A stretch of DNA of 59,567 nt from a virus (lineage: Duplodnaviria > Caudoviricetes). Shown in pieces: positions 2,369 through 24,915 of this stretch. Each line of letters begins with the position of its first letter. Position 1 is the first letter of the stretch. The stretch lies in the IMG/VR virus record IMGVR_UViG_3300027971_000004, positions 1-59,567 of that record, one strand, 5' to 3'. Under the pieces are notes generated by a model. The model worked only from the letters and a program-made list of their open reading frames with translations. It made no database searches and had not been told where the DNA came from. The translations under genes were made by a program, and so were the position numbers.

Positions 2369-2453
2369 CGGGATTCGATCCCGGGCAGTGGGCGGGGATT
2401 CCTGCTGCCCGGGTTCGGCTGCCGTTCGGTAGTCGGTTCTACAGGAGGTGCGT

Positions 2454-10606: not shown

Positions 10607-10790
10607 GTTCATCCAGTCGGTGCTCATGCTCAAGCAACGCTCGTCGGAGTTCTTCCACAATCTCTGGAAGAGCCTCCACGCTGCTGGCAATCACAGCCAC
10701 CTTGGCATGGATTGAGAAAGCCCATGGAGCAACCGCACAAGCGGCCGTCAGGGCGAGCATCCATACCTCAACATCAATCGTCATGCGCAA
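10557..10790 (-). CDS. Small membrane protein with coiled coil (holin/spanin-like)
   Basis: N-terminal hydrophobic segment followed by a heptad-rich tail. Confidence 0.6.
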   Translation of the reverse strand: MRMTIDVEVWMLALTAACAVAPWAFSIHAKVAVIASSVEALPEIVEELRRALLEHEHRLDEHAKEIATLKEASRVSG

Positions 10791-11001
10791 CCTCCCTCAC
10801 CATCTTGACTAGCATGATCCCCGCATAGGGGTGAAGCTGCCCTTCCTCAACGTGCAACTTGACCATGCCTACACATTCTTCGGTTCGCTCGGGGAAGTAG
10901 GAGTAGATGTGAGTCTCTCCATTGAGCTTGGCGATGACACGGTTAAGGCGTCGAAAGCCTGGCCTCGGATCGTCTGCATATCCTTCCGATTCATAATCCA
11001 T
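10774..11001 (-). CDS. Hypothetical protein
   Basis: MDYESEG...; protein-like composition; overlaps the upstream gene. Confidence 0.55.
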   Translation of the reverse strand: MDYESEGYADDPRPGFRRLNRVIAKLNGETHIYSYFPERTEECVGMVKLHVEEGQLHPYAGIMLVKMVREVAHDD

Positions 11002-11252
11002 TTCGCTATCCAGTTGCTCACCAGTGAAATGAGTACGGGCAACACAAACAAGATGAAGAATGACCCGCACTCAGGGTGCATCCGCAGGTATGTCTCCTTC
11101 ATCCTGCGCCGGTAGGTGCGCATGGAGATCGCACCATCAGGGACTACAAGCAGGCCGACAAGGGCGACTTCCCTGGAGTGGGCACTGATTCCCCGTGCGC
11201 CTGATTCGTACAGGCAGAGGTCTGCTACTTCCGTGGCTTGCAGTCTTTGCAC
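10869..11252 (-). CDS. Membrane protein
   Basis: TM segment FFILFVLPVLISLVSNWIAKWI; start uncertain. Confidence 0.6.
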   Translation of the reverse strand: MQRLQATEVADLCLYESGARGISAHSREVALVGLLVVPDGAISMRTYRRRMKETYLRMHPECGSFFILFVLPVLISLVSNWIAKWIMNRKDMQTIRGQAFDALTVSSPSSMERLTSTPTSPSEPKNV

Positions 11253-11476
11253 TCCGGAAGAAGGACAGACTTGGCCTTGCACTTGCACCCGGGCGGGCAG
11301 GCACAGTCGGTCACATGCCCGTCGCCGTGGATAATCTTGCCGTTCTTGCATAGGCCGCAGCACTTCTCTGGCACAGCAACTGCTTTGGTGTGCAGGGTGT
11401 ACGAAGCGTTGACTGCAACGGCCGCGGAATAATCCGGGGCCGCAAGTCCCAAGAGAATCAGCAGAGTCTTAACCAT
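11225..11476 (-). CDS. Small exported Cys-rich protein
   Basis: Signal-like N-terminus; CCGLC..GDGH..CACPPGCKC. Confidence 0.7.
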   Translation of the reverse strand: MVKTLLILLGLAAPDYSAAVAVNASYTLHTKAVAVPEKCCGLCKNGKIIHGDGHVTDCACPPGCKCKAKSVLLPECKDCKPRK

Positions 11477-12422
11477 GGTTCAGTAGCCCTATGGTTCCGT
11501 AGTCGGGGAGACGCTGCGGCGGGAACCCGTCAACTGACCCATACGCATAGCAGTCCCCGCCCGCCACGCATACAGCCCAGTCATCCGCCTTTGTGACAAT
11601 CATTCCAGGCACCCAGGCGGGGTAGTCGGACGGCCATTCCTTCGGCGGCTGATTCCATTTGCCCCAGCTATTCTGGATAAAGAACACATCGAACGGCCAG
11701 TGCTTCCTTGTGAAGTCCATGCCAACCGTCGCCATTGAATGCGACCATCCGCCCGATGTTCTCGGGTGAATGTTCTGGCTGTTCGGCGCCGCGGCCCATG
11801 ATGCAAACTGACCAGACGCCAAGCAGTATCCGTTCGCGAGCGCGTCCCTGGCATCGCTTACATGCGCCACCTGCCGGATGATTCCTACACGGTGCGCGCG
11901 GCACAATTCCTTGACGTTCTCGGGCACGCCAGTCGATCCCCAGCCTGTGCCTATGCGACTTGTATATTTAGATAGATCGACAACGCCTTCATACTTCTTC
12001 CTGATGAGGAAGCCGACCTCGTTCTCAAACATTGCCGCAACCGCTGGCGACATGCCCTGTCCAGAGTGGCCGCGGCACCCGTACGTAGGCTCTGTGGCAC
12101 CGCGAGAGACGAAGCCCTCTGGCTTCTTGGCTATTGCTATTTGCACTGCGCGTGAACCGTCTCTGGCATTGCGGGCCGCGTGGCTGGAACAGTCCCCGGT
12201 GTCTTGGACTTCAGTGAACGACAGCGGGTCAAGTGCCTGCACGTACGGCCACAGCAATGCCCTCTTGCCCTCTCCACTCCCGGCCATGTTTGGCTCAGAA
12301 TAGATCGGTTGTTTCATGGAGTCTAGGAAGAGTGCGCGGTCACGCGGGCTGTCGATGTAGCCAGTCAGGCCGTCGCTTTCATACGCCTGCAGCATGCCAA
12401 GTGGAGTTCCGTTGTCAGCCAC
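11469..12422 (-). CDS. Papain-like cysteine peptidase (C1A-like)
   Basis: QDTGDC (oxyanion Q, catalytic C), WSHSM (His), IQNSWG (Asn). Confidence 0.88.
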   Translation of the reverse strand: MADNGTPLGMLQAYESDGLTGYIDSPRDRALFLDSMKQPIYSEPNMAGSGEGKRALLWPYVQALDPLSFTEVQDTGDCSSHAARNARDGSRAVQIAIAKKPEGFVSRGATEPTYGCRGHSGQGMSPAVAAMFENEVGFLIRKKYEGVVDLSKYTSRIGTGWGSTGVPENVKELCRAHRVGIIRQVAHVSDARDALANGYCLASGQFASWAAAPNSQNIHPRTSGGWSHSMATVGMDFTRKHWPFDVFFIQNSWGKWNQPPKEWPSDYPAWVPGMIVTKADDWAVCVAGGDCYAYGSVDGFPPQRLPDYGTIGLLNHG

Positions 12423-13068
12423 GCCTCACCTCCATGCGCCGGTTGCGGAGATACGATATTCCAGCAGACAAAATGCCTGGGTTATCCCTGGCACCGCCAA
12501 GCATGCGATTGCACCCGCCGCAAAGCGTGCCCCTCACTGCGCCAGTTGTATGGCAATGATCAATGTTCTTTTTGGATGGCGAAGAAAACCCATCTCCGCA
12601 GATTTCGCATTGGCTAACTGCGCATTGTTTCTTGCACTCATCGAACGACAGCTTGTATATGCTGGACCTGTTGCGAATGCTGGCACAGTCTCGGCATTCT
12701 TTTCTCAGGCCACCGACTCTTTTTTTGTCTCGCGGAAATTGAGATGCCGGCTTCAATTCACCGCAGTCACAACAAGTCTTCTCGGTTAGCGTGACGGGAT
12801 GGGACGCAAGTCTCTTTCTGGCAGCGTTGCATTCCTTGCACTCATGCTGCAGCCCTGACGCCCGGTGCTTGGCCCTGTTAAAGCAGTCGGCCGGCAAGGT
12901 TTTCTTGCAAGAGAAACATTCCTGCCCCGCGACAGTGACGGGAATGTTTAGGCTCTTTGCCTTGAAGTTCCTGCAGTCCTTGCATGAAGGCTGATAGCCA
13001 TTCCTGCATGGGCTAAATGCGTCCAGCGGTTTGATCTCTTTGCACACAGTGCAAGACTTCTCACTCAC
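12415..13068 (-). CDS. Endonuclease VII-domain homing endonuclease with three Zn-finger repeats
   Basis: CEICG...IDHCHTTGAVRGTLCGGCNRMLG; three CxxC..P...F....CxxC repeats; AT-richer than flanks. Confidence 0.88.
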   Translation of the reverse strand: MSEKSCTVCKEIKPLDAFSPCRNGYQPSCKDCRNFKAKSLNIPVTVAGQECFSCKKTLPADCFNRAKHRASGLQHECKECNAARKRLASHPVTLTEKTCCDCGELKPASQFPRDKKRVGGLRKECRDCASIRNRSSIYKLSFDECKKQCAVSQCEICGDGFSSPSKKNIDHCHTTGAVRGTLCGGCNRMLGGARDNPGILSAGISYLRNRRMEVRRG

Positions 13069-13483
13069 ACTGACGCTCCACTGCGGTCATTCCGGCGGCG
13101 ATCTTCGCTGCCAAGTCTCGGTCGATGGGGAGGTTGTCCAGCGAGTAATACTCGGAGAGAACCTTGTCCACAGCCACATCAAGGCCGGGGTATTTCTTGG
13201 GTAGGTCGGTTCCACCCGCGGCCAGCCGCAGCGCATCGGCATAGATGCTGCGCCAGGCTGCCGTGGTAGTGATCAGCTGGCCCTGGTCCCTGCTGATGAC
13301 ATCAGCCAGCGCACCATAGATGCTGGCGAGTTTCGCCCGGTCGGAGGAGGAGGCCGACTGGAGGGCGACAGCGACGGGACCCGTGGCGGCTGGCCGCGGG
13401 GAACTGACAAACGACGCTGCAACCAACGCGGCTGCAAGCGCGAGCGGGATTAGCCGAGTAGGGCTTTGAGCAGTTGGCTGCAT
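13061..13483 (-). CDS. Exported or membrane-anchored protein
   Basis: Hydrophobic LIPLALAAALVAASFV near the N-terminus. Confidence 0.7.
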   Translation of the reverse strand: MQPTAQSPTRLIPLALAAALVAASFVSSPRPAATGPVAVALQSASSSDRAKLASIYGALADVISRDQGQLITTTAAWRSIYADALRLAAGGTDLPKKYPGLDVAVDKVLSEYYSLDNLPIDRDLAAKIAAGMTAVERQCE

Positions 13484-13647
13484 GCTTCCACCACCTGGGG
13501 GTTGTTGGATGATTCCTTGATAGCCATCACTGCTTCAATGCTCTGCATGGTGTTGGTTCGCTTCGGCAACTTCACGTTGGGAAGAACGAACTGCACCACA
13601 AGAACGATGGCCAGGATGGAGAGGGCGATGATCTGAAAGGGCGTCAT
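13450..13647 (-). CDS. Small single-TM protein
   Basis: IIALSILAIVLVVQFVL. Confidence 0.7.
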   Translation of the reverse strand: MTPFQIIALSILAIVLVVQFVLPNVKLPKRTNTMQSIEAVMAIKESSNNPQVVEACSQLLKALLG

Positions 13648-14588
13648 AGAATCTTGGCTCCAGGAATGAAGATGGTTACTCCGCCTACCGACTGGGCCAC
13701 GGAGTAGTTGATTAGGTTGTGCGGGTCCAGCAGGCCCCAGCCGTAGATGCTGTCCCTGCCAGTGTCACCAGCGTCCTTGCATGTCTGACTCAGGGCATGC
13801 AGTACGGCAGGCTGGTCGATCTTCTTGCCGTCCTTCTTGGCGGCTGACACGTACAGGGCAAGAGTCCCTGCGACGAACGGCGCAGCCATGCTTGTGCCTG
13901 ACACCGTGGCATAGCCGTCGTTCAGCCAGGTGGATGTGATGTCGCAGCCCGGCGCCGCAACCACAATCTCCTTGCCGCGTGACGAGAACTCACACGCCGC
14001 CCCCGTGCGATCTACCGCACCGACACCAACCGTTTCCGGGAACGCGGCCGGGTAGTTAACCTTGCCGCCGTCATTCCCTGCTGCGCAGACAACGATCACC
14101 CCCTCTCGGCAAGCCAGCTTGATGGCCTCATGGAGCCTGCTGTCAGGCGTTGGCGAACCCAGCGACATGCAAGCAATGTCGCAACGCTGTTCCGCTGCAT
14201 GGAGCACAGCCTTGGCTACTGCCTCGTTGCTGCCCATGCCGCTATGGCCAAGGACCTTGAGCGAGAGGAGCTTGGCTTCTGGTGCGATGCCTTTAGCCAA
14301 ACCCCTGCGGGCGCCGATGATCCCCGCCACATGCGTCCCGTGACCGACCGTATCCTCAAACGATGTGTCGCTTGAGAAATTCCGGTAGTCCACCACTGCA
14401 TCGACCAAGGCGGAATGCTTGGAGATGCCGGTGTCAATCACTGCCACTGTAACACCGTCGCCTTTGGTTTGTTTCCAAAGGCTCGGGATGCCGTAGGACT
14501 CCACCCCCCAGTCCACACCGTCCTTGTCGGACAACGGGATGTTGCCAAACTCAACACGGTAGGGCGGGAGGTGGACGTAATCACTCAT
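13644..14588 (-). CDS. Subtilisin-like serine peptidase (S8)
   Basis: VAVIDTG (Asp), GHGTHVAG (His), AAGN (oxyanion), GTSMAAP (Ser). Confidence 0.96.
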   Translation of the reverse strand: MSDYVHLPPYRVEFGNIPLSDKDGVDWGVESYGIPSLWKQTKGDGVTVAVIDTGISKHSALVDAVVDYRNFSSDTSFEDTVGHGTHVAGIIGARRGLAKGIAPEAKLLSLKVLGHSGMGSNEAVAKAVLHAAEQRCDIACMSLGSPTPDSRLHEAIKLACREGVIVVCAAGNDGGKVNYPAAFPETVGVGAVDRTGAACEFSSRGKEIVVAAPGCDITSTWLNDGYATVSGTSMAAPFVAGTLALYVSAAKKDGKKIDQPAVLHALSQTCKDAGDTGRDSIYGWGLLDPHNLINYSVAQSVGGVTIFIPGAKIL

Positions 14589-14913
14589 CGGGCGAGAGCG
14601 TCTCAAGTGCCAGGAGAATCAGCCGCAGGATCGGGATGAGGCTGGTCAGGACGAAGTTCCAGTCCAAGCCAAGCGCGGAATACTCTGCACCCAGGGCGAA
14701 GGCACCGACTTCATGGTCCTCGTCCCAGTCATAAGCCTGCAGGGAACGCAGCTCCGACTCTGACAGGACTGGCATGATCAACCGGGCGACCTTGTCTACG
14801 ATCTCCCACTTGGCAAGGACAGGCAGGTCCTTGTTGTATGCCTTGACTACATCCAGCACCTTGGTGAGAAGGTCACGGTGAGCCAGAAGCCACTGAAGAA
14901 TCTTGAGATTCAT
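14581..14913 (-). CDS. Membrane-associated protein
   Basis: GAGG RBS; hydrophobic C-terminal helix FVLTSLIPILRLILLAL. Confidence 0.7.
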   Translation of the reverse strand: MNLKILQWLLAHRDLLTKVLDVVKAYNKDLPVLAKWEIVDKVARLIMPVLSESELRSLQAYDWDEDHEVGAFALGAEYSALGLDWNFVLTSLIPILRLILLALETLSPDE

Positions 14914-15280
14914 GTTCCACCTCATGGTCCAAACAGGCAACCGCCACAACAGCGTGGCCGGCGATGTCCATCAATGTCTCTCTAATGTCTATTGTCCGCA
15001 GTGATCCTCGGAGCCTGCGGCACTTCTCCCCGATTCTGGCAACCTGATATTTCCACGGGGTAATGCCGTCTTCCGCGACGCCGAGGGCGTTTTCCAAAGG
15101 GCTTTGCTTGCACCCGTAGTACCCACGCTTCCTGGTCAGCAACCTCCAGAGCAGGATGCAGATTCCCCAGTAGGGATCGTCCCGCAATAGGCCGGTCAGT
15201 TCACCAAGTAACTTCTCTTGCCGCTCGCTGGATTCGTCCGTACTCGCTCCAGAAGCTGGGGTGATGGTGGGGGTCTTCAT
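14873..15280 (-). CDS. DUF1599/nucleotide-modification-associated (MazG-like helical) protein
   Basis: KRGYYG...N...ARIGEKCRRL...RETLMDIAGHA pattern. Confidence 0.6.
   Translation of the reverse strand: MKTPTITPASGASTDESSERQEKLLGELTGLLRDDPYWGICILLWRLLTRKRGYYGCKQSPLENALGVAEDGITPWKYQVARIGEKCRRLRGSLRTIDIRETLMDIAGHAVVAVACLDHEVEHESQDSSVASGSP
14983..14997 (-). promoter_or_regulatory. Putative late-promoter motif for the protease cassette
   Basis: GGACAATAGACATTA, 13/15 identical to the copy before the portal gene (GGGCAATAGACAGTA). Confidence 0.5.
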
Positions 15281-15545
15281 CGTTGTCTTCCATGTCCAGT
15301 AGGTAGTTACATCTTGCATGTGCCCATTCCTCCACAAACGAGTCGATCAGGGTTTCTTTATCCTGGGTATTCAGCAGGGCGATGATTCCTCGTTCGTCCT
15401 CGCCGTTGAACAGCCAGTAGCCCAGCATCCCGTCCATCCGATTGGCCGGGCGCAGGTACACTCTGACCGGAAACAGGAGAGGGAATCTCCGGTCGGCCCA
15501 CAACTTCAGCCGTCGCAGCAATCTCTTGCGCCAGTCTGGGGCCAT
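15201..15545 (-). CDS. SprT/zincin-like protein with variant metal motif
   Basis: FVEEWAHA (HExxH-like) plus downstream HHPSFW. Confidence 0.55.
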   Translation of the reverse strand: MAPDWRKRLLRRLKLWADRRFPLLFPVRVYLRPANRMDGMLGYWLFNGEDERGIIALLNTQDKETLIDSFVEEWAHARCNYLLDMEDNDEDPHHHPSFWSEYGRIQRAAREVTW

Positions 15546-15828
15546 CTTCCAGCCTCACAATAAGCAGCCAGTCCCTACCGTTCCGGCGGTGAAGGACAAC
15601 AGGGACTTTGTCCCCGGCATCCCGCACGGCCTGATCCATCCACACATAGGGATTGCCTGCTTCGACCCGCTTCACTTCCAGATGCAGGTTTTCATAGGAG
15701 GAAATGACATCGGGCGAGTCGGTCCCGCCAGCAAACTGCTGGCCACGCCTGGCCTGGCCACCGAAGACTCGCACCCATTCACGGGCCATCTCCCGTTCGG
15801 CCCTGGCCCCCTTGGCCCGGCTGTTCAC
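15358..15828 (-). CDS. Holliday-junction resolvase-like PD-(D/E)XK nuclease
   Basis: NSRAKGARAERE...SPDV...HLEVKR. Confidence 0.85.
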   Translation of the reverse strand: MNSRAKGARAEREMAREWVRVFGGQARRGQQFAGGTDSPDVISSYENLHLEVKRVEAGNPYVWMDQAVRDAGDKVPVVLHRRNGRDWLLIVRLEDGPRLAQEIAATAEVVGRPEIPSPVSGQSVPAPGQSDGRDAGLLAVQRRGRTRNHRPAEYPG

Positions 15829-16082
15829 TTGTCACCCCGCTTCCAAGACACGGTGATGAAGGTCCCGATGAACGCACCCGTGGCCAGAGGGAATAGGTAC
15901 AGGATGTTCTTGGAATAAGAGACAACCCCAAAGGCTAGGAGGGAGTAGAGGACCGATGACACAATAGCTGATCGCCACGGGTCACGCTTCTCCACGCAGA
16001 TGATGTAGTAGGCGTACAGCATGTCCACAACTATGTAGACCAAGAGGATCATCGCGGCGGTGGCGTAAGAAAAGTCGCCCAT
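15825..16082 (-). CDS. Three-TM membrane protein
   Basis: Three hydrophobic segments in 85 aa. Confidence 0.75.
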   Translation of the reverse strand: MGDFSYATAAMILLVYIVVDMLYAYYIICVEKRDPWRSAIVSSVLYSLLAFGVVSYSKNILYLFPLATGAFIGTFITVSWKRGDK

Positions 16083-16354
16083 TATTTCCTATGCCCACTG
16101 GCTGCAAGACTGGACTGTTTCCACTTTGCATGCTGATGCTGGGCGTGACGGGCCTCAACCTCCATGAGGTATGGGAACTGCTCCACTATGAGCTTCACCA
16201 CCTCGGGAGAGCGCTTCTTATCCAGGACCCGCACGTTCTGTCCGATCCATGAGGCGACCGGATTGCCTAGCTGGCGATCCCGCCCCTCAGTCTCGGACTC
16301 CCACCACCAACTGATGGTGTAACTGTTCGTCTTTGTCTGATCACCCGCCAGCAT
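16082..16354 (-). CDS. Hypothetical protein
   Basis: GGAGG RBS before ATG 16354. Confidence 0.6.
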   Translation of the reverse strand: MLAGDQTKTNSYTISWWWESETEGRDRQLGNPVASWIGQNVRVLDKKRSPEVVKLIVEQFPYLMEVEARHAQHQHAKWKQSSLAASGHRK

Positions 16355-16724
16355 CTTCGACCTCCGTTGAAGAGAGGAGAACTCCCAGCATTTCCAGGAT
16401 GTGGTGCGGCCTTGGCTTGGCTGCCCCAACGCTCAGGAGGTAGGCAGTCAGGGTTTCGCCCGTCTGGATGTCTGCCAGGTCGCCCATGAGCCGGCCGTAC
16501 TCGTCTCGCATGTGATCGTAGGTAACGAGCTTCAGCCGGTCGGCATCGGAATGTAATTCACACCAGTCGATGATGTGTTCCTTGGCATCATCAAGACACC
16601 AAATGCCACAGGGAACCATGTAGAGGGTGACTCGGGTTTGCGACAGCGGGCACCAGGCCCGCAGCTGCAGGGTGTCATGCCGGATGACGCGGAGTACGTG
16701 TGCTATGGGCTGCGACTCGTCCAT
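16341..16724 (-). CDS. Thermonuclease (SNase)-fold protein, degenerate active site
   Basis: VLRVIRHDTL (cf. VIDGDT), DEYGRLMG, LLSVGAA. Confidence 0.65.
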   Translation of the reverse strand: MDESQPIAHVLRVIRHDTLQLRAWCPLSQTRVTLYMVPCGIWCLDDAKEHIIDWCELHSDADRLKLVTYDHMRDEYGRLMGDLADIQTGETLTAYLLSVGAAKPRPHHILEMLGVLLSSTEVEDAGG

Positions 16725-17095
16725 GATCCCGTGTTACGTTCCCGTTCCTTGAGGTAGTAATCCGGCAGAGGCTCGGGGTCATAGCCCAGATGCTTCTTAT
16801 GTCTTAGCGAGGCGAGGTATTCCGGATCGTAGTTATCCGGATCACACTCCTGCTTGACACCTAATAGTATACGGTTGTCCAGATCGGCATGCAACTTGTT
16901 TCCACTGTGCAGCGTGTGATGGTCACGGTCGCAGAGCCGAAGGTAGTTCCTGATGTCATGCTTGCGACCTGCGCCACCAACGATGTGGTGAACCTCAAGC
17001 CGGCGGCGACCATCAGACTCGGGCCACCAGCACACTGAGCAACAGCGATGCTCGGCCACCCATTCCAGCAGGGCGGAGCGTTCAACAGCGTTCAA
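16703..17095 (-). CDS. HNH endonuclease
   Basis: CSVC...EVHHI...NYLRLCDRDH. Confidence 0.8.
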   Translation of the reverse strand: MNAVERSALLEWVAEHRCCSVCWWPESDGRRRLEVHHIVGGAGRKHDIRNYLRLCDRDHHTLHSGNKLHADLDNRILLGVKQECDPDNYDPEYLASLRHKKHLGYDPEPLPDYYLKERERNTGSWTSRSP

Positions 17096-17594
17096 CGACA
17101 GCCTCCGCTACTTGGCGCAGGGCCGACTGGAAGTCATCTTCTAAGATGTCGTTCTTGGCCTGGTTGATTATCCAAAGAACAACTCGGCAGTTGTCTGGCG
17201 TGTAACCCTTGCTGCTGTCGATGCGATCAATTGACGGCATGAATGGATGTCGCCTGACGTTAAGAACAAAAACAATTCCTGTGACCTCGCACGTGCAGGC
17301 CAGTAATTTCTGCCGAAACCACTCAAGCGCAAGCCCAAACTCTAGCGATCTATGCTTCGCCCGGCTTTTGCATTGCTGAAACATTGCTGCAGCCAAGTCC
17401 CGATCTTTCCACGCTCCGCGCGTTCTTCTTCTGCGAGCTTTATTTTTTTCATCCTTCTGATATTCGGAGTCACAGCGCCTGCAACTGCCCTGTAGACCGT
17501 CAGCCTTACTGTTGTTCCTGTTAAAGTCCGAGCGGGGTCTTTCCCGCCCTTGACACAATGGCCCGTTGCAAACCTTGGTTGCCTCGGCGTACAT
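17082..17594 (-). CDS. HNH-like (DRID..KGY..DN) endonuclease with N-terminal Zn finger
   Basis: SIDRIDSSKGYTPDNCRVV...NQAK; AGGAG RBS; AT-richer. Confidence 0.82.
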   Translation of the reverse strand: MYAEATKVCNGPLCQGRERPRSDFNRNNSKADGLQGSCRRCDSEYQKDEKNKARRRRTRGAWKDRDLAAAMFQQCKSRAKHRSLEFGLALEWFRQKLLACTCEVTGIVFVLNVRRHPFMPSIDRIDSSKGYTPDNCRVVLWIINQAKNDILEDDFQSALRQVAEAVVERC

Positions 17595-17599
17595 GCTCC

Positions 17600-17990
17600 T
17601 TCACGCTTCCACCTCCGTGGGTTGGGCGGGAGTGTACAGGCGATCACGCCCCAGTCAAACGTAGACCGTGCAGAGGCGCAGTTGACTCCCAGCAAAAATG
17701 CCGGAAGTCAATCGCTTAGACCGCGCTTTCGGCGGCAGCGACTGGATGCTGATTGTTTAACGCCGTTGTATCCATTTCTCCCAGACACGGCGCTTGCGGT
17801 TGGCTGTAGCCCGGGGCAGGCGGAGTCACCAGTTCCCACCCCTCAGTCGCAAGAGTTCGGATGGATTGCCTTGCGGGCGGGTCACATCCGTGTTGCCCCC
17901 TCTTGTCGCATCCCATACGGGACCAGTTGGCGGGGGGCCGATCTGCAGGCCAGGTGCCCATCCGTGGGCTATGTAAGGGCGGCAGTCTAC
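17600..17990 (-). ncRNA. Candidate large structured non-coding RNA
   Basis: The one long gap in a tightly packed operon; many nested helices with G-U pairs and GNRA loops on the minus strand (see findings). Confidence 0.55.
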
Positions 17991-18250
17991 CTGAGACTGT
18001 CCTTATGTCCAGTGTCTTCTAAGGCCCCTGGCGTGCGTTCTACGGGGCGTTTGGGTTCCGGGATACCGTACATGGCGTTCCCGGCTATTCGGATTTCTGA
18101 GGCGTCTACGTGCGTCACGCGGCCATCCCCAGTCAAATGTACAACCCAGACGGTGTTAATGTGGGGGCCGTAGTCAATGACGAGCAGGGCGATCCCGTCC
18201 CCGAGAGGGCAGGTAACCCAGATCGGCGGGTCCAGCTGGCAGATAGTCAC
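17987..18250 (-). CDS. Conserved-type phage hypothetical protein
   Basis: QLDPPIWVTCPLGDG.A..IDYG motif; coupled start. Confidence 0.7.
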   Translation of the reverse strand: MTICQLDPPIWVTCPLGDGIALLVIDYGPHINTVWVVHLTGDGRVTHVDASEIRIAGNAMYGIPEPKRPVERTPGALEDTGHKDSLR

Positions 18251-18474
18251 TCGGCCAGCCTCCAGGCTTCCTCGGCGTCGAACACGTTCGGCGCCCGCTC
18301 CCCGGCCAAGGACATGTCCACCACCCCCGGGTAGTGACGCATGAGCCTGCGGGCCTCCTCGCGTACGTGGCGGGGAACTCTCTTAAAACCATCCGGCAGG
18401 GCGGGGTTCATCAGCCGCAGGAGAAAGTCCCTGGTGCTAAGGACTGATCGGGTTCGCTGGCTTGGAAGAGTCAT
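18247..18474 (-). CDS. BPSL0761-like protein
   Basis: MTLPxQRTRxVLxTRxFL...VPxxVRxEARxLMRHYP. Confidence 0.7.
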   Translation of the reverse strand: MTLPSQRTRSVLSTRDFLLRLMNPALPDGFKRVPRHVREEARRLMRHYPGVVDMSLAGERAPNVFDAEEAWRLAE

Positions 18475-18746
18475 TTGGTTCTCTCCAGCAGTGAGCGGAG
18501 CGTGGCGGCACTTGCGTAACTCTTCGCGTCAATGAAGTCTGCAGCCGCCTCAATCGCCTGCCGCTCCTCGTCGGTGAGCGTGGGCGGAGTCAGGGAACAG
18601 TACTGAGTTGTAGTGCCGACAACGTACGGACACGGGGCCTTACGCAGCCGCTCAATCTCGTCAGCAGCCTCATCCATGAGGTCGGAAGCCGAGACTGAAT
18701 CGACTGCGTGAACCCAGCGTCGGAGCCGGGTGACGATGTCTGTCAT
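18471..18746 (-). CDS. Hypothetical phage protein
   Basis: DIVTRLR...EAADEIERLR; shares its C-terminus with the next gene. Confidence 0.75.
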   Translation of the reverse strand: MTDIVTRLRRWVHAVDSVSASDLMDEAADEIERLRKAPCPYVVGTTTQYCSLTPPTLTDEERQAIEAAADFIDAKSYASAATLRSLLERTK

Positions 18747-19033
18747 TTCATTCGCTCCAGAAGGCCGCTCAAAGTCAATCCTGTCTGGGTGCCAATGTAG
18801 AACTCGCTCGCCTCAGTGAGGGCACGCCGCTCCTTGTCAGTCAGGTGCTTGCCGTCGATGCACAACGCCTGCATTTTCTGGTAACCCTCTATCAGGGCAC
18901 TCATCTGTTTGCTGTCCTCTTCCCTTTGCCGGCGGAGGTCGGCAATCTCCTGCGCTCCTTCCAGCAGCAGCTCGGCCGGTTCTTCCCGTGGACGCTTGGC
19001 TGCCCACATGGACATGCGGTCTTCAATCTTCAT
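18743..19033 (-). CDS. Hypothetical phage protein (paralog of 18471..18746)
   Basis: LTDKERRAL...TLSGLLERMK vs LTDEERQAI...TLRSLLERTK. Confidence 0.7.
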   Translation of the reverse strand: MKIEDRMSMWAAKRPREEPAELLLEGAQEIADLRRQREEDSKQMSALIEGYQKMQALCIDGKHLTDKERRALTEASEFYIGTQTGLTLSGLLERMK

Positions 19034-19121
19034 GGTTGCTCAAGATGATGAGGAGGATGACTATGATCAGGAGGAACATGGTGAACGTGCCTTCGCCTAT
19101 GGTGTCGATGAACGTCAGCAT
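19023..19121 (-). CDS. 32-aa single-TM peptide
   Basis: MLTFIDTIGEGTFTMFLLIIVILLIILSNHED fills the operon gap. Confidence 0.5.
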   Translation of the reverse strand: MLTFIDTIGEGTFTMFLLIIVILLIILSNHED

Positions 19122-19255
19122 GATCCCCACGCATTAATGACCTTGGCCTGGAGGCTTGCGATCTCGGCCTCCAAAGTCTGGATGCGTCTTCGCAACGTAG
19201 CGTTCTCGTTCTTCAATCGCTCCACCTCCTGAGAGGAATAGTCCTGCGTCTCCAT
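19115..19255 (-). CDS. Small coiled-coil protein
   Basis: EVERLKNENATLRRRIQTLEAEIASLQAK. Confidence 0.55.
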   Translation of the reverse strand: METQDYSSQEVERLKNENATLRRRIQTLEAEIASLQAKVINAWGSC

Positions 19256-19739
19256 CGACAAGGTCCAGATAGTGATGTGGGTATAGGAGGTCTGTGAGTT
19301 GGCTGGCTGGTCGGAGGAACTTCTTCGGGGCAACGAGGGTCGGAACGTCATGCCCTCGCCCTCGGTCGAAGACAGTCTGTTCCTTCCAACTGTTGTCCCG
19401 ATCAAGGGGAGTGAGCCACACCCACTCTCCTGTTGGCCGGGAGATGTAGATGTAGGCGAGGTGCTGCAGTCGCTCGCGTCCAAGTCCTCGCATGTCATCA
19501 ACAAAGACGGTGTCATATGGGTAATCCTCCGGGGAAGTGAAAGTTAGGGACCGCTCCTTGATCTCCAAGCTGAACAAGCCCAGTGCATCGGGCGTCTCAA
19601 CGTGGTCCTTGTTCTTGTTGTGAACCTTTACAACGATCTTCTTGCCGTGGGCCGCTGACCTGCCTGCCTCGCGAACAGACTCAACCCAGTTACGCTCGGC
19701 TCTGTGCCCGCCCTCAAGCGCACTCTTGAACGAACGCAT
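19134..19739 (-). CDS. PD-(D/E)XK nuclease-like protein
   Basis: GHRAE...TPDA...LEIKER; GGAG RBS before ATG 19739. Confidence 0.7.
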   Translation of the reverse strand: MRSFKSALEGGHRAERNWVESVREAGRSAAHGKKIVVKVHNKNKDHVETPDALGLFSLEIKERSLTFTSPEDYPYDTVFVDDMRGLGRERLQHLAYIYISRPTGEWVWLTPLDRDNSWKEQTVFDRGRGHDVPTLVAPKKFLRPASQLTDLLYPHHYLDLVDGDAGLFLSGGGAIEERERYVAKTHPDFGGRDRKPPGQGH

Positions 19740-20196
19740 TGAGTTCTCTCCGGTGTGACGGGAGCCGGGACCGATACGTGCCGGCGACACGCAGGGCTTC
19801 GGCTTGCTCAAGGATTTCCGTGGGAGTCGGATCGCCAGGCTGAAGCCCATCGTCCAAGTACTCAAGGTCCCAGCGGATCGGCTCGGCCTCGCGGAGTTCG
19901 ACCGCACGCTCGCGGACCAGATAGGCCCAGCGAGGAGAGCGGCCAAAGATTTCAGCGATGTCCCGGTTGTCCAGCCCGCAGTCACGCATCACCACCAGGG
20001 CGAGTCGCTCAGGGCTTGGCTTGGCAGGCAAGCTCCTTAGCAGACGGACGGCCCCCTTGGTCTGCTGGATGTCCAGCCCCAAGCTCTCCGCCACTGCGGT
20101 CGCTGACTCCTGATTGATCAGCACTCGGCGGTGCAGCTCGTCTGCGAAAGCCAAAGCATGCCGCAATCGAATCTCGCCATCGTTTCCAAAAACCAT
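19714..20196 (-). CDS. Double-HTH transcriptional regulator
   Basis: SATAVAESLGLD and DNRDIAEIFGRSPRWA; AGGAGG RBS. Confidence 0.7.
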   Translation of the reverse strand: MVFGNDGEIRLRHALAFADELHRRVLINQESATAVAESLGLDIQQTKGAVRLLRSLPAKPSPERLALVVMRDCGLDNRDIAEIFGRSPRWAYLVRERAVELREAEPIRWDLEYLDDGLQPGDPTPTEILEQAEALRVAGTYRSRLPSHRRELNAFVQECA

Positions 20197-20311
20197 CTCT
20201 CTTCTCCTCCTTGAGAAACTCGGTAGGGAACACATGCTCAACATCGAACTGATTCAGAATCGCATCGACCGTCTCATCCAAGAGAAAGTCAGGACGCTTG
20301 GGGGATTCCAT
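20009..20311 (-). CDS. Hypothetical protein
   Basis: GAGG RBS; overlaps the helicase end and the regulator start. Confidence 0.5.
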   Translation of the reverse strand: MESPKRPDFLLDETVDAILNQFDVEHVFPTEFLKEEKRDGFWKRWRDSIAACFGFRRRAAPPSADQSGVSDRSGGELGAGHPADQGGRPSAKELACQAKP

Positions 20312-21332
20312 GTCGCCTCTCCCACTCCCTACAGAACAGACCCTTCACCCATCCGCTGATGCTCGGTGCATCACATGCCCATCGGATGTAGTGATCTGGA
20401 AGCTGGCTCATCTTCAGCCCGCCGTACTTGCCCCGGAGAGGGTTCGTATACGTGCCGACCGGCCTCTTGCCCTTCCATGTAATGTCGATCTCTTGGCTGG
20501 CCACCCGGCCAAAGCCCCGGCCTTGCGTGTTCTTCCGCATGGCTTCGATGGCCTTGGCGGATGCGATCCGCTCGGCCTCCTTGGCGGCGATGTCAGCCAT
20601 CTCCTCGGCAGTCAGTGGCTTCTTGGATTCAGCAGCCGCCTTCTTGACTACCTTCTTCACTTCCTCGTCGGCGGCAGGGCAGAACATGTCCACGCTGGTG
20701 ACGAGCGAGTGGTCGATGCTGCCCGTGGTGCAGTCCACTATCTTGAAGTGCTTCTTCGCACTTGCGGAGACGGCAGCTCGTCGGCTATCTGGCGTACTGC
20801 CCTCAAAATCAACAACGCCCGGTAGCGGACGAGTGGCTCGTCCCACGCACTGCAGCCAGAAGGACCTTGAGCGGGTGGGCCTTCCCAGAATAAGGGTTGC
20901 TGTAGGGGGGTAATCGAAGCCAACGGCAACGACTTGGCAGTTGCACAGGACCTTGGCCTCGCCTGACTTAAACGCTCGGAGTGCCTCACGCCTCTCCTCC
21001 TCGGGCTGTGTGCCGTACACGTACACGGCAGGGATGCCGTAGTTGTTGTTGAGGTAGTGGGCCGCAGCCTTCGATGACGAGACAGATGCCGTGAAGAGGA
21101 CGGTCTGGCCCTCCATCTCCTCCGCCGTGATCAGGCACAGGCGTTGGATGTTGGATTCCTTATTCAACTCGGCCTGTAGGGCCTGCTGCTGGAAGTCACC
21201 GCCAACGATCTTGATGCCTGACAGGTCCAAGGATTCCACCCGTGCTAGTTTGCAGACGGGGGAAACAGCCCACCCGTATTCGATGGCCCACCGCAGGTCG
21301 TATCCGCCGACGAGTTCTTCGTAGAATTGCAT
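20289..21332 (-). CDS. SF2 helicase, C-terminal (RecA2/HELICc) half
   Basis: TVLFTAS, VLCNCQVVAVGFDYP, RPTRS...QCVGRATR (motif VI); AGGAG 6 nt before ATG. Confidence 0.9.
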   Translation of the reverse strand: MQFYEELVGGYDLRWAIEYGWAVSPVCKLARVESLDLSGIKIVGGDFQQQALQAELNKESNIQRLCLITAEEMEGQTVLFTASVSSSKAAAHYLNNNYGIPAVYVYGTQPEEERREALRAFKSGEAKVLCNCQVVAVGFDYPPTATLILGRPTRSRSFWLQCVGRATRPLPGVVDFEGSTPDSRRAAVSASAKKHFKIVDCTTGSIDHSLVTSVDMFCPAADEEVKKVVKKAAAESKKPLTAEEMADIAAKEAERIASAKAIEAMRKNTQGRGFGRVASQEIDITWKGKRPVGTYTNPLRGKYGGLKMSQLPDHYIRWACDAPSISGWVKGLFCREWERRHGIPQAS

Positions 21333-21835
21333 GCTTCACTCCTGAGCATTGGCTTGCCGTCCATCCGAAATGGCGTGGCTGTAAAGCCAGCGACCATTGC
21401 CCCCTTCGATTGGAAATGCGTGAGCATCTCCACCACCGCCTCACTGCACATCATGTGTGCTTCATCAACGATCACCAGTTGGAAATCATCGAACCTCTCG
21501 TAACGCTTCTGCCCGCCCCTCCGGGAAAGCAGCGTTTGCTTCGATGCCACCACCACCTTGGGCGAGAACCAGTCATCGGCACCCGCCCTGTACTCAGCCA
21601 TCTCAATGTCAGGGTCTTCCCCGAGGATGTCCCTGACCTTGTCCACTGCCTGCCACAGAAGTTCCTTGAGCGGGACGATGATGAGCGTGCGGCCCGGGAT
21701 TCGATTGGCCAGGCTGCAGAACACCACCGTCTTCCCCGCTCCCGTGAACATGGGGTTGAGCGTGGACTTCACTCCGCGTTCCATCGCGGCGATGTTGTCG
21801 CCCACCACTTGCTCTTGATAGTCACGTAGTTGCAT
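21245..21835 (-). CDS. SF2 helicase, N-terminal (DEAH ATPase) half
   Basis: LRDYQ, TGAGKT, IVDEAH, GFTATP. Confidence 0.92.
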   Translation of the reverse strand: MQLRDYQEQVVGDNIAAMERGVKSTLNPMFTGAGKTVVFCSLANRIPGRTLIIVPLKELLWQAVDKVRDILGEDPDIEMAEYRAGADDWFSPKVVVASKQTLLSRRGGQKRYERFDDFQLVIVDEAHMMCSEAVVEMLTHFQSKGAMVAGFTATPFRMDGKPMLRSEACNSTKNSSADTTCGGPSNTGGLFPPSAN

Positions 21836-21855
21836 GTCTCATTCCTTTGAGAAGA

Positions 21856-21890
21856 CCTGGGGGCTGGGCGGAGGGTTCCCAGCCCCCAGG
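21856..21890 (-). terminator. 13-bp perfect hairpin after ssb (terminator or processing site)
   Basis: CCTGGGGGCTGGG/CCCAGCCCCCAGG with only a weak U-tract. Confidence 0.6.
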
Positions 21891-21914
21891 CGGCGCGCAC
21901 TTTCTTCCTTCAAA

Positions 21915-22256
21915 TCACCTAAAGTCCGAGAACGATTCCTCCAAGGCCGGCTCTTCACGGCGCTTCCCGCCGCAGAGCTGCACCTTCATCACCTTGATGA
22001 TCTTCTTCGACTTCTTCTCGCCGTCCTTCTCCCAAGACTGCGTCTGAATCTCACCTTCCACCAGCACCTGAGTGCCGCGGACGAGGTACTCAACGACGCC
22101 ACCGGGCTTCCACATCTCGCAGTCGAAGTACTCAACCGAGTCCTTGTAGCCATTGACCGCGAGGCTGAACTTCGCAACCTCGTTCTCGCCGGCCATGCGA
22201 CTCTCGGCATCCTTGGTCAGATTGCCGAGACAGATGAAACGCTGGTAACCGCTCAT
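21915..22256 (-). CDS. ssb: Single-stranded DNA-binding protein
   Basis: GNLTKDAE, FSLAVN, GTQVLVEGEIQTQSWEKDG; acidic tail. Confidence 0.95.
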   Translation of the reverse strand: MSGYQRFICLGNLTKDAESRMAGENEVAKFSLAVNGYKDSVEYFDCEMWKPGGVVEYLVRGTQVLVEGEIQTQSWEKDGEKKSKKIIKVMKVQLCGGKRREEPALEESFSDFR

Positions 22257-22891
22257 GCTTGAACCTCCCAGACCTTCTTGAATTCGGCCTCAACCCTGTG
22301 GAACACTTCCGCAGGGACGGCCTTCTCCTTCGCACGGAGACGCACCATGTCTAGATGCTTCTTCGCGTGATCCTTACTCTCGGCCTCGTTGATCGCCTTG
22401 ATCGCACCCTGCTGGTAGGCAAGGCTCTTGGCGTCCACCTTCGGCTCTGACTTCTTCTGCGGCTGCTGCTCACCAAGGCTGTTGCCGTCATCGTCAGCCT
22501 CGCCACTGAACCCGCCGCACAGAGCCATCAGTAGCGTCCGCTTGGCGTAGGTCATCGCCGCCCCAAAGGACTGCATGTCGGTCTTTCCCATGAACAAAGG
22601 GGCGGCACCGCTGATCCACTGGCCTGACGAATGACGCAGGGTTCCAACGACGAGCCACTGACCACCAACAAGGCCGGGTCGGAAGTCAGGGAGACTCAGC
22701 CCGTTCTTGGTGAGCGGCCCGCGGAGCGAGTCGCAGCACTGTGCATATGAAGCAAACTTGCTTTTGAAGTGCGGGTTCGCACTGTCATAGGCAACGATGG
22801 GATACTCGGCCTGGGCCTTGGCAAGAGCCTTGGTCAACTCCGATGTCTCGGGCGAACAACTCGGCCCGAGGATGTTGTTGTCGTAATTCAT
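22253..22891 (-). CDS. erf: ERF-family ssDNA-annealing protein
   Basis: ALAKAQ, NPHFKSKFA, HSSGQW, QSFGAAMTYAKR, DDDGN. Confidence 0.92.
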   Translation of the reverse strand: MNYDNNILGPSCSPETSELTKALAKAQAEYPIVAYDSANPHFKSKFASYAQCCDSLRGPLTKNGLSLPDFRPGLVGGQWLVVGTLRHSSGQWISGAAPLFMGKTDMQSFGAAMTYAKRTLLMALCGGFSGEADDDGNSLGEQQPQKKSEPKVDAKSLAYQQGAIKAINEAESKDHAKKHLDMVRLRAKEKAVPAEVFHRVEAEFKKVWEVQA

Positions 22892-23739
22892 ACCTCTACG
22901 TACTCCTCTTCCTTCTTTGCCCACGCCGGGACAACGAGTTCCGTGATCTCGTTTGCGTCAGCGGGCATATACATGCCCGTGGAGCGGCGTAGACGAACCT
23001 CCTCCATGGTGTTGAGCATCCGGCGCCCGGCTGCCTCAACAAGTTCAACTGGCAGATAGAAGACCTTGCAGCCGTAGGGCGGCATGGTCTGCACAAAAAC
23101 GAATGGCATGCGGAAGTGCGGCAGGCCGATGGCCTTGGCAGACTCCACGTACAGCCACTCCTGCTCGTAGTAGCCGTAGTCCCTCGCACTGAAGAAGAGC
23201 TTCTCCCATGGCTGGGATGTGGTCTTGAGGTCCCACCACAACTCTGGGCAGCATGCGTCCGGGCGGGTCTTGAGCGGATGGCCGTCTATCTCAAAGAACA
23301 CTGAGACTTGCGTCTCGGTGGTCCGCTTCATCAGGTCATAGGCAGCGTCGTTGCCCAGCATTGAGCCGTGCATCTGCTTGTAGGCCCACAACTGATCAGG
23401 CGTGCAGATGATGGCCGTCTGCTGGGCAGCCCACTCCCTGTAGGCATTGGTCGTTCGGGAGCCACCCTTCCCAAGCACATCGTCCGGGGGGGTGACCACC
23501 ATGTCCTCAAACCGCTTGCCGCCGAGGATGCCGGTGATGATCTCGTCAAACTCAGACCCCTTGGAGGTCCCTGAGTTGCCACCGAAAAACGTCTTGCCCT
23601 GCTCCAGCCACAGCTGCACCTCGCCGCCGTGCTTGGCGACCGTGTGCAGGAAGGACCGTGAGTCGAAGTCCGACTCCATCCGGTACGCCTGATTGCTCAT
23701 GCCGATCACCTTGGTCGGCAGTTCTTTGATAGTGGTCAT
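22888..23739 (-). CDS. RecE/ExoVIII-like PD-(D/E)XK exonuclease
   Basis: KTRPD...DLKTT...YGYYEQ; adjacent to ERF; GGAGG RBS. Confidence 0.85.
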   Translation of the reverse strand: MTTIKELPTKVIGMSNQAYRMESDFDSRSFLHTVAKHGGEVQLWLEQGKTFFGGNSGTSKGSEFDEIITGILGGKRFEDMVVTPPDDVLGKGGSRTTNAYREWAAQQTAIICTPDQLWAYKQMHGSMLGNDAAYDLMKRTTETQVSVFFEIDGHPLKTRPDACCPELWWDLKTTSQPWEKLFFSARDYGYYEQEWLYVESAKAIGLPHFRMPFVFVQTMPPYGCKVFYLPVELVEAAGRRMLNTMEEVRLRRSTGMYMPADANEITELVVPAWAKKEEEYVEV

Positions 23740-23824
23740 CCGTACACCTCCAGAAAATGAAAGCCCCATCCGTGGGGCAGGGTCGATCCTTCAATCCCCG
23801 TCCTTGGGGCAGAACTCCTTGATC
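23737..23824 (-). promoter_or_regulatory. Leader with clustered ANGGA-loop hairpins (CsrA/RsmA-type sites)
   Basis: CCCC-AAGGAC-GGGG, TTGA-AGGA-TCGA, GCCCCA-CGGA-TGGGGC, plus ACGGATG over the start codon. Confidence 0.6.
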
Positions 23825-24006
23825 GCTTCGCCCAGATGTCCAAGCACCAGCAAGGTGCAGACGAGGCCCAATCGGTTGAGCCAGAGGGCAGTGGTCAGGG
23901 CGGCGAGAAACGCCAGCCGTAGGATTCGGTGATCCCGAAGGACGCACCAAACTAGGGCACTCCGGAGAGTGCTATAGACAATTGAGCTAGGGGTGCCTGT
24001 AAACAT
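23791..24006 (-). CDS. Possible small membrane protein (leaderless)
   Basis: ATG 7 nt after a TATAAT box; two hydrophobic stretches. Confidence 0.4.
   Translation of the reverse strand: MFTGTPSSIVYSTLRSALVWCVLRDHRILRLAFLAALTTALWLNRLGLVCTLLVLGHLGEAIKEFCPKDGD
23979..23996 (-). other. tRNA-Arg-like 5' fragment, candidate attP core
   Basis: GCACCCCTAGCTCAATTG resembles an acceptor 5' strand plus D-arm start; about 95 bp from the integrase start. Confidence 0.55.
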
Positions 24007-24012
24007 GTTCGG

Positions 24013-24041
24013 ATTATACGAACTTTGCAGGGGGGTATGAA
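24013..24041 (-). promoter_or_regulatory. Leftward sigma70-type promoter
   Basis: TTCATA-17 nt-TATAAT; the -10 box is bracketed by the dyad GTTCG-N7-CGAAC (24007-24023). Confidence 0.55.
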
Positions 24042-24090
24042 ATGCCTCGGACTTCGGGAAAAACACTCGCCACCATCGGGGGGCTTTCCC

Positions 24091-24915
24091 ATGCTGCTTT
24101 ACCACTTCGCACTTGACTACGCTATGAAGTCCGGGGCTTCCGCCGGGTACGCGGAGCAGCTTCGCGTCCTGACCAAAAGACTGCCGTGGCAGGTCAGCGA
24201 ACTGACCATTAGCAACATCGACGGCTACCTGACTCAGGCTCTCCATATCCTCGCTCCTCAGACTGTCCAGAACCACAGGAGGATGTTGATCACCCTCCGC
24301 CGTGCTGCCCTCCGAGGCAACCTGCTGGTGGACGATTGTACAGGCGAGGTTCGCCGTGTCAAGTGCCCTCGTCCGTTGCCCCGTGCGTGGAGCCATGAGG
24401 AGATACGAAGATTGATACAAGCTGCCGGGGAAATGCCGGGTGGCACCCAGAAATGTAGATGGAAGATTCTGCTTCCAGCTTGGATTCTGGTGGCCTACAG
24501 CAGCGGTCTTCGGCTCGGAGATATGCTGACGCTGCGACATGATTCCATCCGTGGAGCCAGAGTTGCGTTGGTGATGGCCAAGACAGCCCGCCCGCATGTA
24601 GTCATGCTGGACAGCGCCGCCCTCCAGGCCATCGCATCCCTCCCAATCTCAGGCCCCCTTATCTTCGGGGGTCTGGTTGGGCGGTGCGTACTTATACGGG
24701 CGTTCAGGAGACTTGTCAAGCGGGCCGGAATGGCCGGGTCAGGGCGGTTTCTTCGCCGCTCGTCCGCGACCTATGCTGCCATAGCCGGGATGAACCCCTC
24801 GGACCACCTCGGGCACCTCACCCCCGGACTCGCACAGCGGTGCTATGTCGATCCGGTCTTGGTGGCAGAGTTGAAGAACCCAGTGCCGTCAGTCGCGCTA
24901 GCCGTTGATCCCTAG
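24091..24915 (+). CDS. int: Tyrosine recombinase/integrase
   Basis: YSSGLRLGD (Arg), KT, RFLRRS, LGH, RCY (Tyr); start could be 24038. Confidence 0.9.
   Translation: MLLYHFALDYAMKSGASAGYAEQLRVLTKRLPWQVSELTISNIDGYLTQALHILAPQTVQNHRRMLITLRRAALRGNLLVDDCTGEVRRVKCPRPLPRAWSHEEIRRLIQAAGEMPGGTQKCRWKILLPAWILVAYSSGLRLGDMLTLRHDSIRGARVALVMAKTARPHVVMLDSAALQAIASLPISGPLIFGGLVGRCVLIRAFRRLVKRAGMAGSGRFLRRSSATYAAIAGMNPSDHLGHLTPGLAQRCYVDPVLVAELKNPVPSVALAVDP

Follow-up and report, generated by a model that had tools for sequence, protein, structure and literature searches.

Large, intricate RNAs with many invariant bases are rare, and those whose function was eventually solved have usually been found to act as ribozymes, as riboswitches or as the core of an RNA-protein machine. 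Processive antitermination RNAs such as HK022 put and EAR are about 70-120 nucleotides (nt) long and exert their effect in cis, on the polymerase that transcribes them, regardless of which genes lie downstream. HEARO is described as a 343-nt RNA that is ordered only when protein-bound, and GOLLD as an RNA whose 3' region is conserved and whose 5' region varies (10.1101/2024.12.08.627333). The subject of the present analysis is a structured RNA of approximately 295 nt encoded on the minus strand of a viral genome (Duplodnaviria; Caudoviricetes; IMG/VR record IMGVR_UViG_3300027971_000004), the full 59,567-nt stretch of which is referred to here as the window. It has 12 helices, three of which are pseudoknots, and is most similar to large leaders or to the ornate RNAs of phages, while being a member of none of the families with which it was compared.

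We are highly confident that positions 17681-17975 (minus strand) of the window specify a real structured RNA. The first-pass annotation, made from the letters of the window alone, had proposed a new large structured RNA at 17600-17990, and the proposal is borne out by helix covariation among relatives, by the absence of a matching Rfam family and by the absence of a conserved open reading frame (ORF) that would explain the region. MAFFT put homologous helices in different registers in each lineage; RNAalifold applied to the MAFFT alignment of all types returned almost no structure, and column scans were equally messy. Because of these differing registers, an alignment-free test was chosen, in which search intervals for the two strands of a helix were cut by conserved anchors and the best contiguous helix was scored, with each sequence's own (cognate) pair of intervals compared with pairings of intervals from different sequences. 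Cognate strands paired better in every helix tested, with p values from 7e-12 to 0.015. RNAalifold on the 18 sequences of the window's own type (type A) predicted 37 pairs, with compensatory change at 14, and for the 5' helices P1b and P2, where the MAFFT columns are unambiguous, 99.7% of cells were paired.

The strand was assigned by comparing each helix with its reverse complement. For the 13-bp stem H8 the given strand was better in 21 variants and the other strand in 4, of 27 variants (Wilcoxon p=1e-4), so that the earlier argument for a minus-strand RNA, based on the two G-U pairs of this stem (TTGACTTCCGGCA/TGCTGGGAGTCAA), holds for H8. H7 leaned the same way (given strand 16, other strand 7), while the opposite lean of H6 (1 vs 9) and PK2 (2 vs 10) is attributed to spurious stems in noisy search intervals. 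Folding energy alone is only suggestive: the wider span of the first-pass annotation reaches only z=-1.89 on the minus strand (+0.81 on the plus strand), and the minimum free energy of the core (17678-17977, minus) gives z=-2.50, with 1 of 200 shuffles folding as well.

The RNA matches no described family in Rfam 15 at the gathering score, either in the window or in nine related loci, and blastn of positions 17000-18300 against 50,697 GenBank phage records gave no match. A full-text literature search, with supplementary motif lists outside its reach, found nothing describing this RNA. Judged by Rfam 15 and that literature, it is previously unclassified. The earlier statement that no transfer RNA (tRNA), transfer-messenger RNA (tmRNA), RNase P or group I intron is present also stands, as ARAGORN found no tRNA or tmRNA across the whole genome and Rfam gave no match to RNase P RNA, group I introns or the known riboswitch classes; the ORFs flanking the RNA are, moreover, separate genes that differ among relatives.

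Relatives were collected in several ways. A helicase-based search yielded 11 syntenic loci, in seven of which the segment corresponding to window positions 17974-17894 was 79-87% identical as DNA, against an identity of only 64-68% in the helicase protein. Scans for exact patterns of the invariant core contributed 19 viral loci and one more. A looser pattern scan of genomes and metagenomes returned 170 stretches, of which 22 carried at least two further hallmarks; the remainder, lacking two such hallmarks, were discarded as chance GC-rich matches. Covariance models run over 48 loci encoding a conserved HNH protein (see below) added seven more divergent copies. In total the RNA is known in about 38 sequence variants from uncultivated, approximately 60-kb freshwater phages, with identities in the central part of 34-99% (median 48%). 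Two middle architectures, type A and type B, have all helices in common and differ in sequence. Individual loci are denoted below by L numbers, and rows refer to aligned copies.

Table 1. Positions and support of the RNA, its helices and the neighbouring features in the window
Feature	Position	Strand	Description	Support
Structured RNA core	17681..17975	minus	Starts at conserved AUAG preceding H1, ends with PK3 3' strand	About 38 variants
H1	17956..17969	minus	Hairpin GCCCA-CGGA-UGGGC	12 helix versions, p=9e-4; compensatory pairs in RNAalifold
P1b	17928..17952	minus	UGGC (17952-17949)/GCCA (17931-17928), loop with C-run	29-30/30 rows paired per position
P2	17895..17938	minus	Pseudoknot GCCCCC (17938-17933)/GGGGGC (17900-17895), crosses P1b, encloses H2	30/30 rows paired, invariant
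H2	17910..17923	minus	TCCC/GGGA	p=2e-4
H3	17858..17890	minus	CGGAUG/CAUCCG, internal loop, inner GCC-CGCAA-GGC hairpin	17 helix versions, p=8e-11
P5	17793..17853	minus	CUUGCG (17853-17848)/CGCAAG (17798-17793)	14 helix versions in 19 variants, p=1.4e-8; in minimum free energy fold
H4	17813..17842	minus	GGGGUGGG/CCUGCCCC, 14-nt loop with invariant GACUCC (17827-17822)	19 versions in 27 variants, p=7e-12
H5	17802..17811	minus	Small hairpin GGC-UACA-GCC	13 versions, p=9e-3; weak support
H6	17761..17792	minus	CGCCGU/ACGGCG, loop with UGGAU (17774-17770), the PK2 5' strand	p=1.5e-9, then 1.5e-10 on 35 rows
PK2 3' strand	17743..17747	minus	AUCCA, pairs with UGGAU of H6 loop	15 helix versions, p=5.6e-6
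H7	17710..17743	minus	AGUCGCU/AGCGAUU around inner GAAA-capped hairpin	21 versions, p=0.015
H8	17682..17711	minus	13-bp hairpin UUGACUUCCGGCA-UUUU-UGCUGGGAGUCAA	p=2e-9
PK3 3' strand	17681..17689	minus	GGAGUCA(A)C, pairs with GUGACUCC (17829-17822) in H4 loop	p=3e-4
Repeat unit L	17726..17706	minus	Overlaps H7	Local alignment of H8 flanks
Repeat unit R	17653..17671	minus	GCACGGUCUACGUUUGACU, near-copy of unit L just after H8	Local alignment of H8 flanks in every relative
Upstream sigma-70-like site	17984..18011	minus	TGGACA-16-TAGACT	Ends 7-9 nt before conserved RNA start
Downstream sigma-70-like site	17631..17658	minus	TTGACT-16-TACACT, between RNA and next gene	Site present in 5 of 27 relatives
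Sense ORF, 81 aa	17716..17961	minus		No Pfam or PHROGs match
Antisense ORF, 207 aa	17550..18173	plus		No Pfam or PHROGs match
Endonuclease VII/HNH-like gene, 170 aa	17082..17594	minus	Variable cassette	PHROG 3322 endonuclease / endonuclease VII, E 1.6e-29
Small HNH gene 'c1', 130 aa	16703..17095	minus	Conserved	Pfam HNH E 5.6e-6

The 5' domain consists of a hairpin followed by an H-type pseudoknot (P1b/P2), with approximately 30 invariant bases, some of them unpaired inside the pseudoknotted core. The outer pair of P1b is CG in 23 rows, UA in five and AU in one. The P2 pairing is unproven in the 30 rows because it never varies there; the divergent relative L249 has, by eye, CACCC/GGGUG at the place of P2, together with CGGAG/CUCCG as its H6. 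H3 is optional, being missing in L016, L024, L031 and L138 and missing or replaced in some relatives. Downstream of it, P5, H4 and H5 meet in a three-way junction closed by P5, and the H4 loop motif GACUCC is invariant in 28 of 29 rows. The five versions of the 5' strand of H6 (CGCCGU, CGCAGU, CGCUG, CGGGG and CGGAG) each have a matching partner.

All letters quoted in the first-pass annotation are present in the sequence, and relatives upheld its hairpins H1, H2, H3 (with an inner GCC/GGC stem), H6, H8 and, with a weaker signal, H7. The P1b/P2 pseudoknot, the P5-H4-H5 junction and the long-range PK3 are additions to its drawing. Three of its pairings fell away. The closing helix GTAGACTG/CGGTCTAC is not kept in L179, a near-identical RNA with an unrelated upstream flank that lacks GTAGACTG; in place of CAAGAG/CTCTTG, the CUUGCG strand pairs with CGCAAG 55 nt downstream in P5; and the two strands of the suggested GGGGCA/TGCCCC pseudoknot belong elsewhere, GGGGGC to P2 and UGCCCC to the 3' strand of H4.

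The 3' half contains two competing pairings. An invariant GGAGUC (17689-17684) lies in the 3' arm of H8 and can pair either with the invariant H4 loop 130 nt upstream (PK3) or with the local arm (H8), and these two helices are mutually exclusive because both use the same GGAGUC bases. For PK3, 92.7% of cells were paired compared with 87.0+-1.0% in shuffled controls (0 of 500 reached the observed value), and slid controls gave 17-58%. The pair flanking PK3 is CG in 20 rows, UA in five, AU in two and UG in two, three pairs change on both sides and L138 has a G-C to A-U double change. In this relative loop, local arm and 3' strand have all changed in concert (AACUCC/GGAGUU). The two bases that follow GGAGUC are paired to the H4 loop in L021 (AAGACUCC/GGAGUCUU) and likewise in L025, and by eye these bases are unpaired with the local arm in both. 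The H8 helix ends before the invariant final C of GGAGUC in L027 and L142, in which the H4 loop matches ten bases of the GGAGUC strand, and falls two bases short in L114. Given these patterns, the invariance of GGAGUC follows PK3 and not H8. In 23 of 29 copies the H7 loop has a third complementary segment, GGCUCC, and L013-type relatives have an extra hairpin, GGGAGUC-UCC-GACUCCC, where H3 would be.

H8 is also flanked by a direct repeat of 19-33 nt (units L and R), the cores of which lie 45-63 nt apart. Its sequence is lineage-specific, the copies within a genome being alike. Only two copies are present, and the reverse complement of the repeat core was found in no locus, the sole exception being a 7-nt match in the window, some 12 kb away from the RNA.

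The element is always on the coding strand and immediately ahead of a gene. As the first-pass annotation had noted, two nuclease genes follow it in the window. The second of these, a conserved 130-amino-acid (aa) HNH gene, lies downstream of the RNA in 19 of the 20 loci that carry the element, the one miss being cut off by a contig end, and is the immediate neighbour in L013, L016 and L031. Elsewhere the RNA is separated from this gene by one or two variable genes. These belong to four unrelated clusters, of which two are endonuclease VII-like (one weakly) and two have no family match. The upstream neighbour also varies, and with genes on both flanks variable the locus is a gene-exchange hot spot around a constant RNA. 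Conversely, 22 of the 48 HNH loci have no detected RNA, although one of these has only 156 nt of upstream sequence, and four complete (CheckV 100%) relatives of about 60 kb carry the HNH gene and lack the 3' core of the RNA, in a search where the positive control matched. All co-occurrences of RNA and HNH gene fall in one syntenic clade. In two further loci, L248 and L250, the 3' core is retained at about 900-480 nt upstream of HNH, together with an unrelated 5' domain that lacks the C-run/G-run pseudoknot, and the standard 5' model has no match anywhere in the complete genome of L248. Separately, the RNA-less loci L266, L267 and L270 have 450-615-nt gaps with no same-strand ORF of at least 50 aa, located 0.9-1.5 kb upstream of HNH, which might hold a different RNA.

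Two promoter-like sites were found in a 2-kb segment of the window, compared with 0.4 expected, and these bracket the RNA. The upstream site recurs in 2 of 29 relatives and the downstream site in 5 of 27, against 1.5% in control windows; in the cases viewed by eye the downstream site accompanies a nuclease cassette of the window's type. The upstream promoter was thus rejected as a conserved feature, and since so few relatives possess it, transcription of most copies probably reads through from genes further upstream. No terminator-like site was found on the minus strand between the RNA and the next gene (16600-18600), H8 has no U-tract, and terminator-like sites across 10300-24900 were at chance level (12 found, 11.3 expected). 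The distance from GGAGUC to the HNH start is 26 nt in L013, and to the next ATG in the window 90 nt. Most type-B relatives have an AUG after GGAGUC, with frame and length not kept by eye, and a small ORF at this place was accordingly rejected.

Starting from the observed structure, strand, competing pairings and position, our preferred though tentative reading, in which we infer both the switch and its downstream effect from sequence, is that the RNA works in cis, as a leader or switch that controls the block of genes downstream. It is based on the fixed sense position in front of a gene, the absence of a terminator between the two and the built-in competing pairings. The RNA would be made as part, or at the start, of a long minus-strand transcript and would act in cis on the message just downstream. 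The invariant GGAGUC would close the whole 3' half by pairing with GACUCC of the H4 loop in PK3; alternatively, the less conserved local arm would capture it to form H8, and the choice between PK3 and H8 could set read-through, processing or translation of the nuclease/RusA gene block. This arrangement is similar to that of riboswitch-type leaders with pseudoknot switches, which also occupy a sense position ahead of a gene and have a conserved core closed by a 3' strand with a competing local partner. Like the put and EAR elements, the RNA is a phage or operon RNA that is accessory among relatives.

Several observations weigh against a cis-acting leader. The next gene is not fixed, being drawn from the four unrelated cassette clusters or being the HNH gene itself, so that, in contrast to riboswitches, no constant regulated gene exists, and there is neither a known ligand nor an Rfam riboswitch match. 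Promoter-like sites lie between the RNA and the next gene in the five loci noted above, the window included. Neither terminator nor Shine-Dalgarno logic is apparent, given an H8 without a U-tract and terminators at chance frequency, which also sets the RNA apart from put and EAR. At 295 nt and with three pseudoknots it is large for a leader, its 3' core is missing in four complete relatives, and the lineage-specific direct repeat around H8 has no explanation in a cis-switch model.

Nearly as likely, and similarly tentative, is a free-standing, trans-acting RNA released from the transcript, such as a decoy, a scaffold, a host-takeover RNA or an RNA or RNA-protein particle. The constancy of the RNA between variable flanking genes, its roughly 30 invariant bases, the 3' end tucked into PK3 and the two promoter-like sites that bracket it in the window are all consistent with this alternative, and ornate phage RNAs, GOLLD and ROOL, are described in 10.1101/2024.12.08.627333. 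Like these, the present RNA is phage-encoded, rich in helices and pseudoknots and of unknown function, and the retention of the 3' core with another 5' domain in L248 and L250 is reminiscent of GOLLD. It differs in its length of about 295 nt compared with 500-800 nt, in giving no Rfam match and in its genomic setting, since GOLLD and ROOL are often beside tRNA genes and this 59.6-kb genome has none. A trans-acting RNA is also harder to reconcile with the lack of a terminator-like 3' end, with the upstream promoter-like site occurring in only 2 of 29 relatives and with the failure to identify a partner protein. Possibly such an RNA self-assembles through pairing between the H4 loop of one molecule and the GGAGUC tail of its neighbour; covariation is blind to whether pairing is intra- or intermolecular, and the extra GGGAGUC-UCC-GACUCCC hairpin that replaces H3 in L013-type relatives would fit a trans-acting role. 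As ROOL and GOLLD form cages, such a putative multimer would be analogous.

A bolder set of proposals, which we consider improbable, is that the RNA represents a new class of phage RNA that is catalytic, with the 5' pseudoknot and the GACUCC/GGAGUC closure as its active site, or that self-assembles hand to tail, or that it arms the HNH protein as a minimal RNA-dependent nuclease. A self-cleaving or processing ribozyme that would cut the polycistronic transcript before it reaches the nuclease genes is unlikely. The GIR1 lariat-capping ribozyme occurs upstream of a homing-endonuclease ORF, and the invariant unpaired bases of the pseudoknotted core and the intergenic position within a long co-directional gene array are compatible with such an activity. 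However, no known ribozyme family in Rfam matches, no cleavage site can be named, and L248 and L250 keep the 3' core even though their 5' domain has been replaced by an unrelated fold.

It is likewise rather unlikely that the RNA is a partner, guide or autoregulatory site of the small HNH nuclease, in the manner of HEARO (omega-RNA) with IscB or IsrB, although the resemblance of an approximately 300-nt pseudoknotted RNA directly upstream of an HNH-domain gene is evident. The near-constant succession of RNA and HNH gene is in favour, as is the unusual conservation of the HNH protein (55-80% identity to the first sequence, compared with 64-68% for the helicase, one near-identical relative excepted), and repeat units L and R could be a primary site and its mimic. 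The co-location claimed by the first-pass annotation is therefore real, but the functional association it suggested is weakened by the RNA-less HNH loci, which include four complete genomes, and by the restriction of all co-occurrences to one syntenic clade. The HEARO model itself had no match in the window or in nine related loci, with nothing at E up to 10 in 17400-18200. IscB/IsrB-type partners have RuvC with or without HNH and about 350-500 aa, whereas the proteins here are of 170 and 130 aa; for the 130-aa protein Pfam finds an HNH domain only, with no RuvC, and no closely related protein has a solved structure. A search for guide-like variable segments at the 5' or 3' end with a target nearby was negative, the complement of the repeat core being confined to the 7-nt match noted above.

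Very unlikely is an explanation other than a structured RNA, either as a protein-coding stretch or as a CsrA sponge. A stop-free antisense frame spans the whole core in 17 of 30 relatives, above our rough chance estimate, but stops interrupt all antisense frames in the other 13 and all sense frames in 28 of 30, and single-base gaps between close relatives also break the antisense frame. The sense ORFs form unrelated clusters, six of 19 full-length loci have none of at least 45 aa, neither of the window's two ORFs matches Pfam or PHROGs, and coding cannot account for paired changes up to 140 nt apart. The CsrA sponge raised by the first-pass annotation is opposed by the lack of a CsrB-type Rfam match and by GGA motifs that, by eye, are not kept in hairpin loops across the alignments, the H1 loop for example being CGGA, CUGGAU or CUGUU. 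Least probable of all is the replication origin or primer RNA that the same annotation had inferred, since, despite the lack of a recognised polymerase, primase or initiator among the ORFs scanned, the recombination-gene neighbours (exonuclease, Erf, helicase and RusA) and a direct repeat flanking an inverted repeat, an essential origin should not be dispensable and the 3' core is absent from four complete relatives, only two repeat copies exist, and the compensatory changes and G-U strand bias indicate a folded transcript and not a duplex DNA site.

The RNA combines three pseudoknots, competing structures and a gene-shuffling hot spot of abundant lake phages, and its approximately 38 natural variants suffice for designing structure probing, mutational tests and cryogenic electron microscopy. 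Should it prove only a leader, its size and modularity would still be unusual, and a role as ribozyme, assembling RNA or nuclease partner would represent a new kind of phage biology. The mechanism may yet prove ordinary.

The viral record is complete at 59,567 bp (CheckV 100%), with a 51-bp terminal overlap and a G+C content of approximately 59%, and nearly all genes between about 59,500 and 10,800 are on its minus strand. The RNA lies in the gap at 17595-17986, between an 87-aa ORF on one side and the 170-aa endonuclease VII/HNH-like gene on the other. The 87-aa protein has no family match and no relatives in viral contigs, and NCBIfam gave no match for the 170- and 130-aa proteins. The cluster of the 170-aa gene comprises only the window and L015, the gene being absent from most relatives. 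The window's copy of the 130-aa HNH protein reads C-D-R-D-H-H where nine of ten relatives have a second zinc-binding C-x-x-C-H-G, and may be a weakened copy.

One possible copy outside the freshwater phages was seen in L091, a prophage in a Gemmataceae metagenome-assembled genome, where a stretch of about 650 nt without a recognised gene (2380-3050) precedes capsid, portal and terminase genes. It starts with a 26-nt identity to the 5' core of the RNA, and an H1-like hairpin, P1b and P2 are present. The 3'-core model gives no match to it, nor does Rfam, and its covariance-model score arises by construction, L091 having been placed in the seed alignment. The string CTGAAGATCGG is also a common coding string, and L091 is treated as an unconfirmed distant relative of the 5' domain. 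Among 201 Gemmataceae genomes the exact 19-mer occurred only in L091's own, and one-mismatch matches occurred in 25 of 201 compared with 12 genomes for the reversed control. The 151 genomes of its phylum gave eight weak matches (22-27 bits) that share little beyond the coding-like string, and host-side copies of the 5' core in this family and phylum were judged to be chance.

More widely in the window, the neighbours of the RNA are of recombination type, including exonuclease VIII-like, Erf-like, helicase, RusA and several endonuclease VII/HNH-like genes, while many large ORFs match no family. A third endonuclease VII-like gene is located in the minus-strand block at 12415-13068 (minus), and a serine recombinase on the plus-strand arm at 9400-10185 (plus; Pfam Resolvase, E 1.9e-27). 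The helicase at 20289-21835 (minus) is split into two ORFs in different frames with an overlap of about 88 nt, which cover PHROG 16 positions 271-426 and then 436-654 consecutively; this could reflect a frameshift, a sequencing error or programmed recoding.

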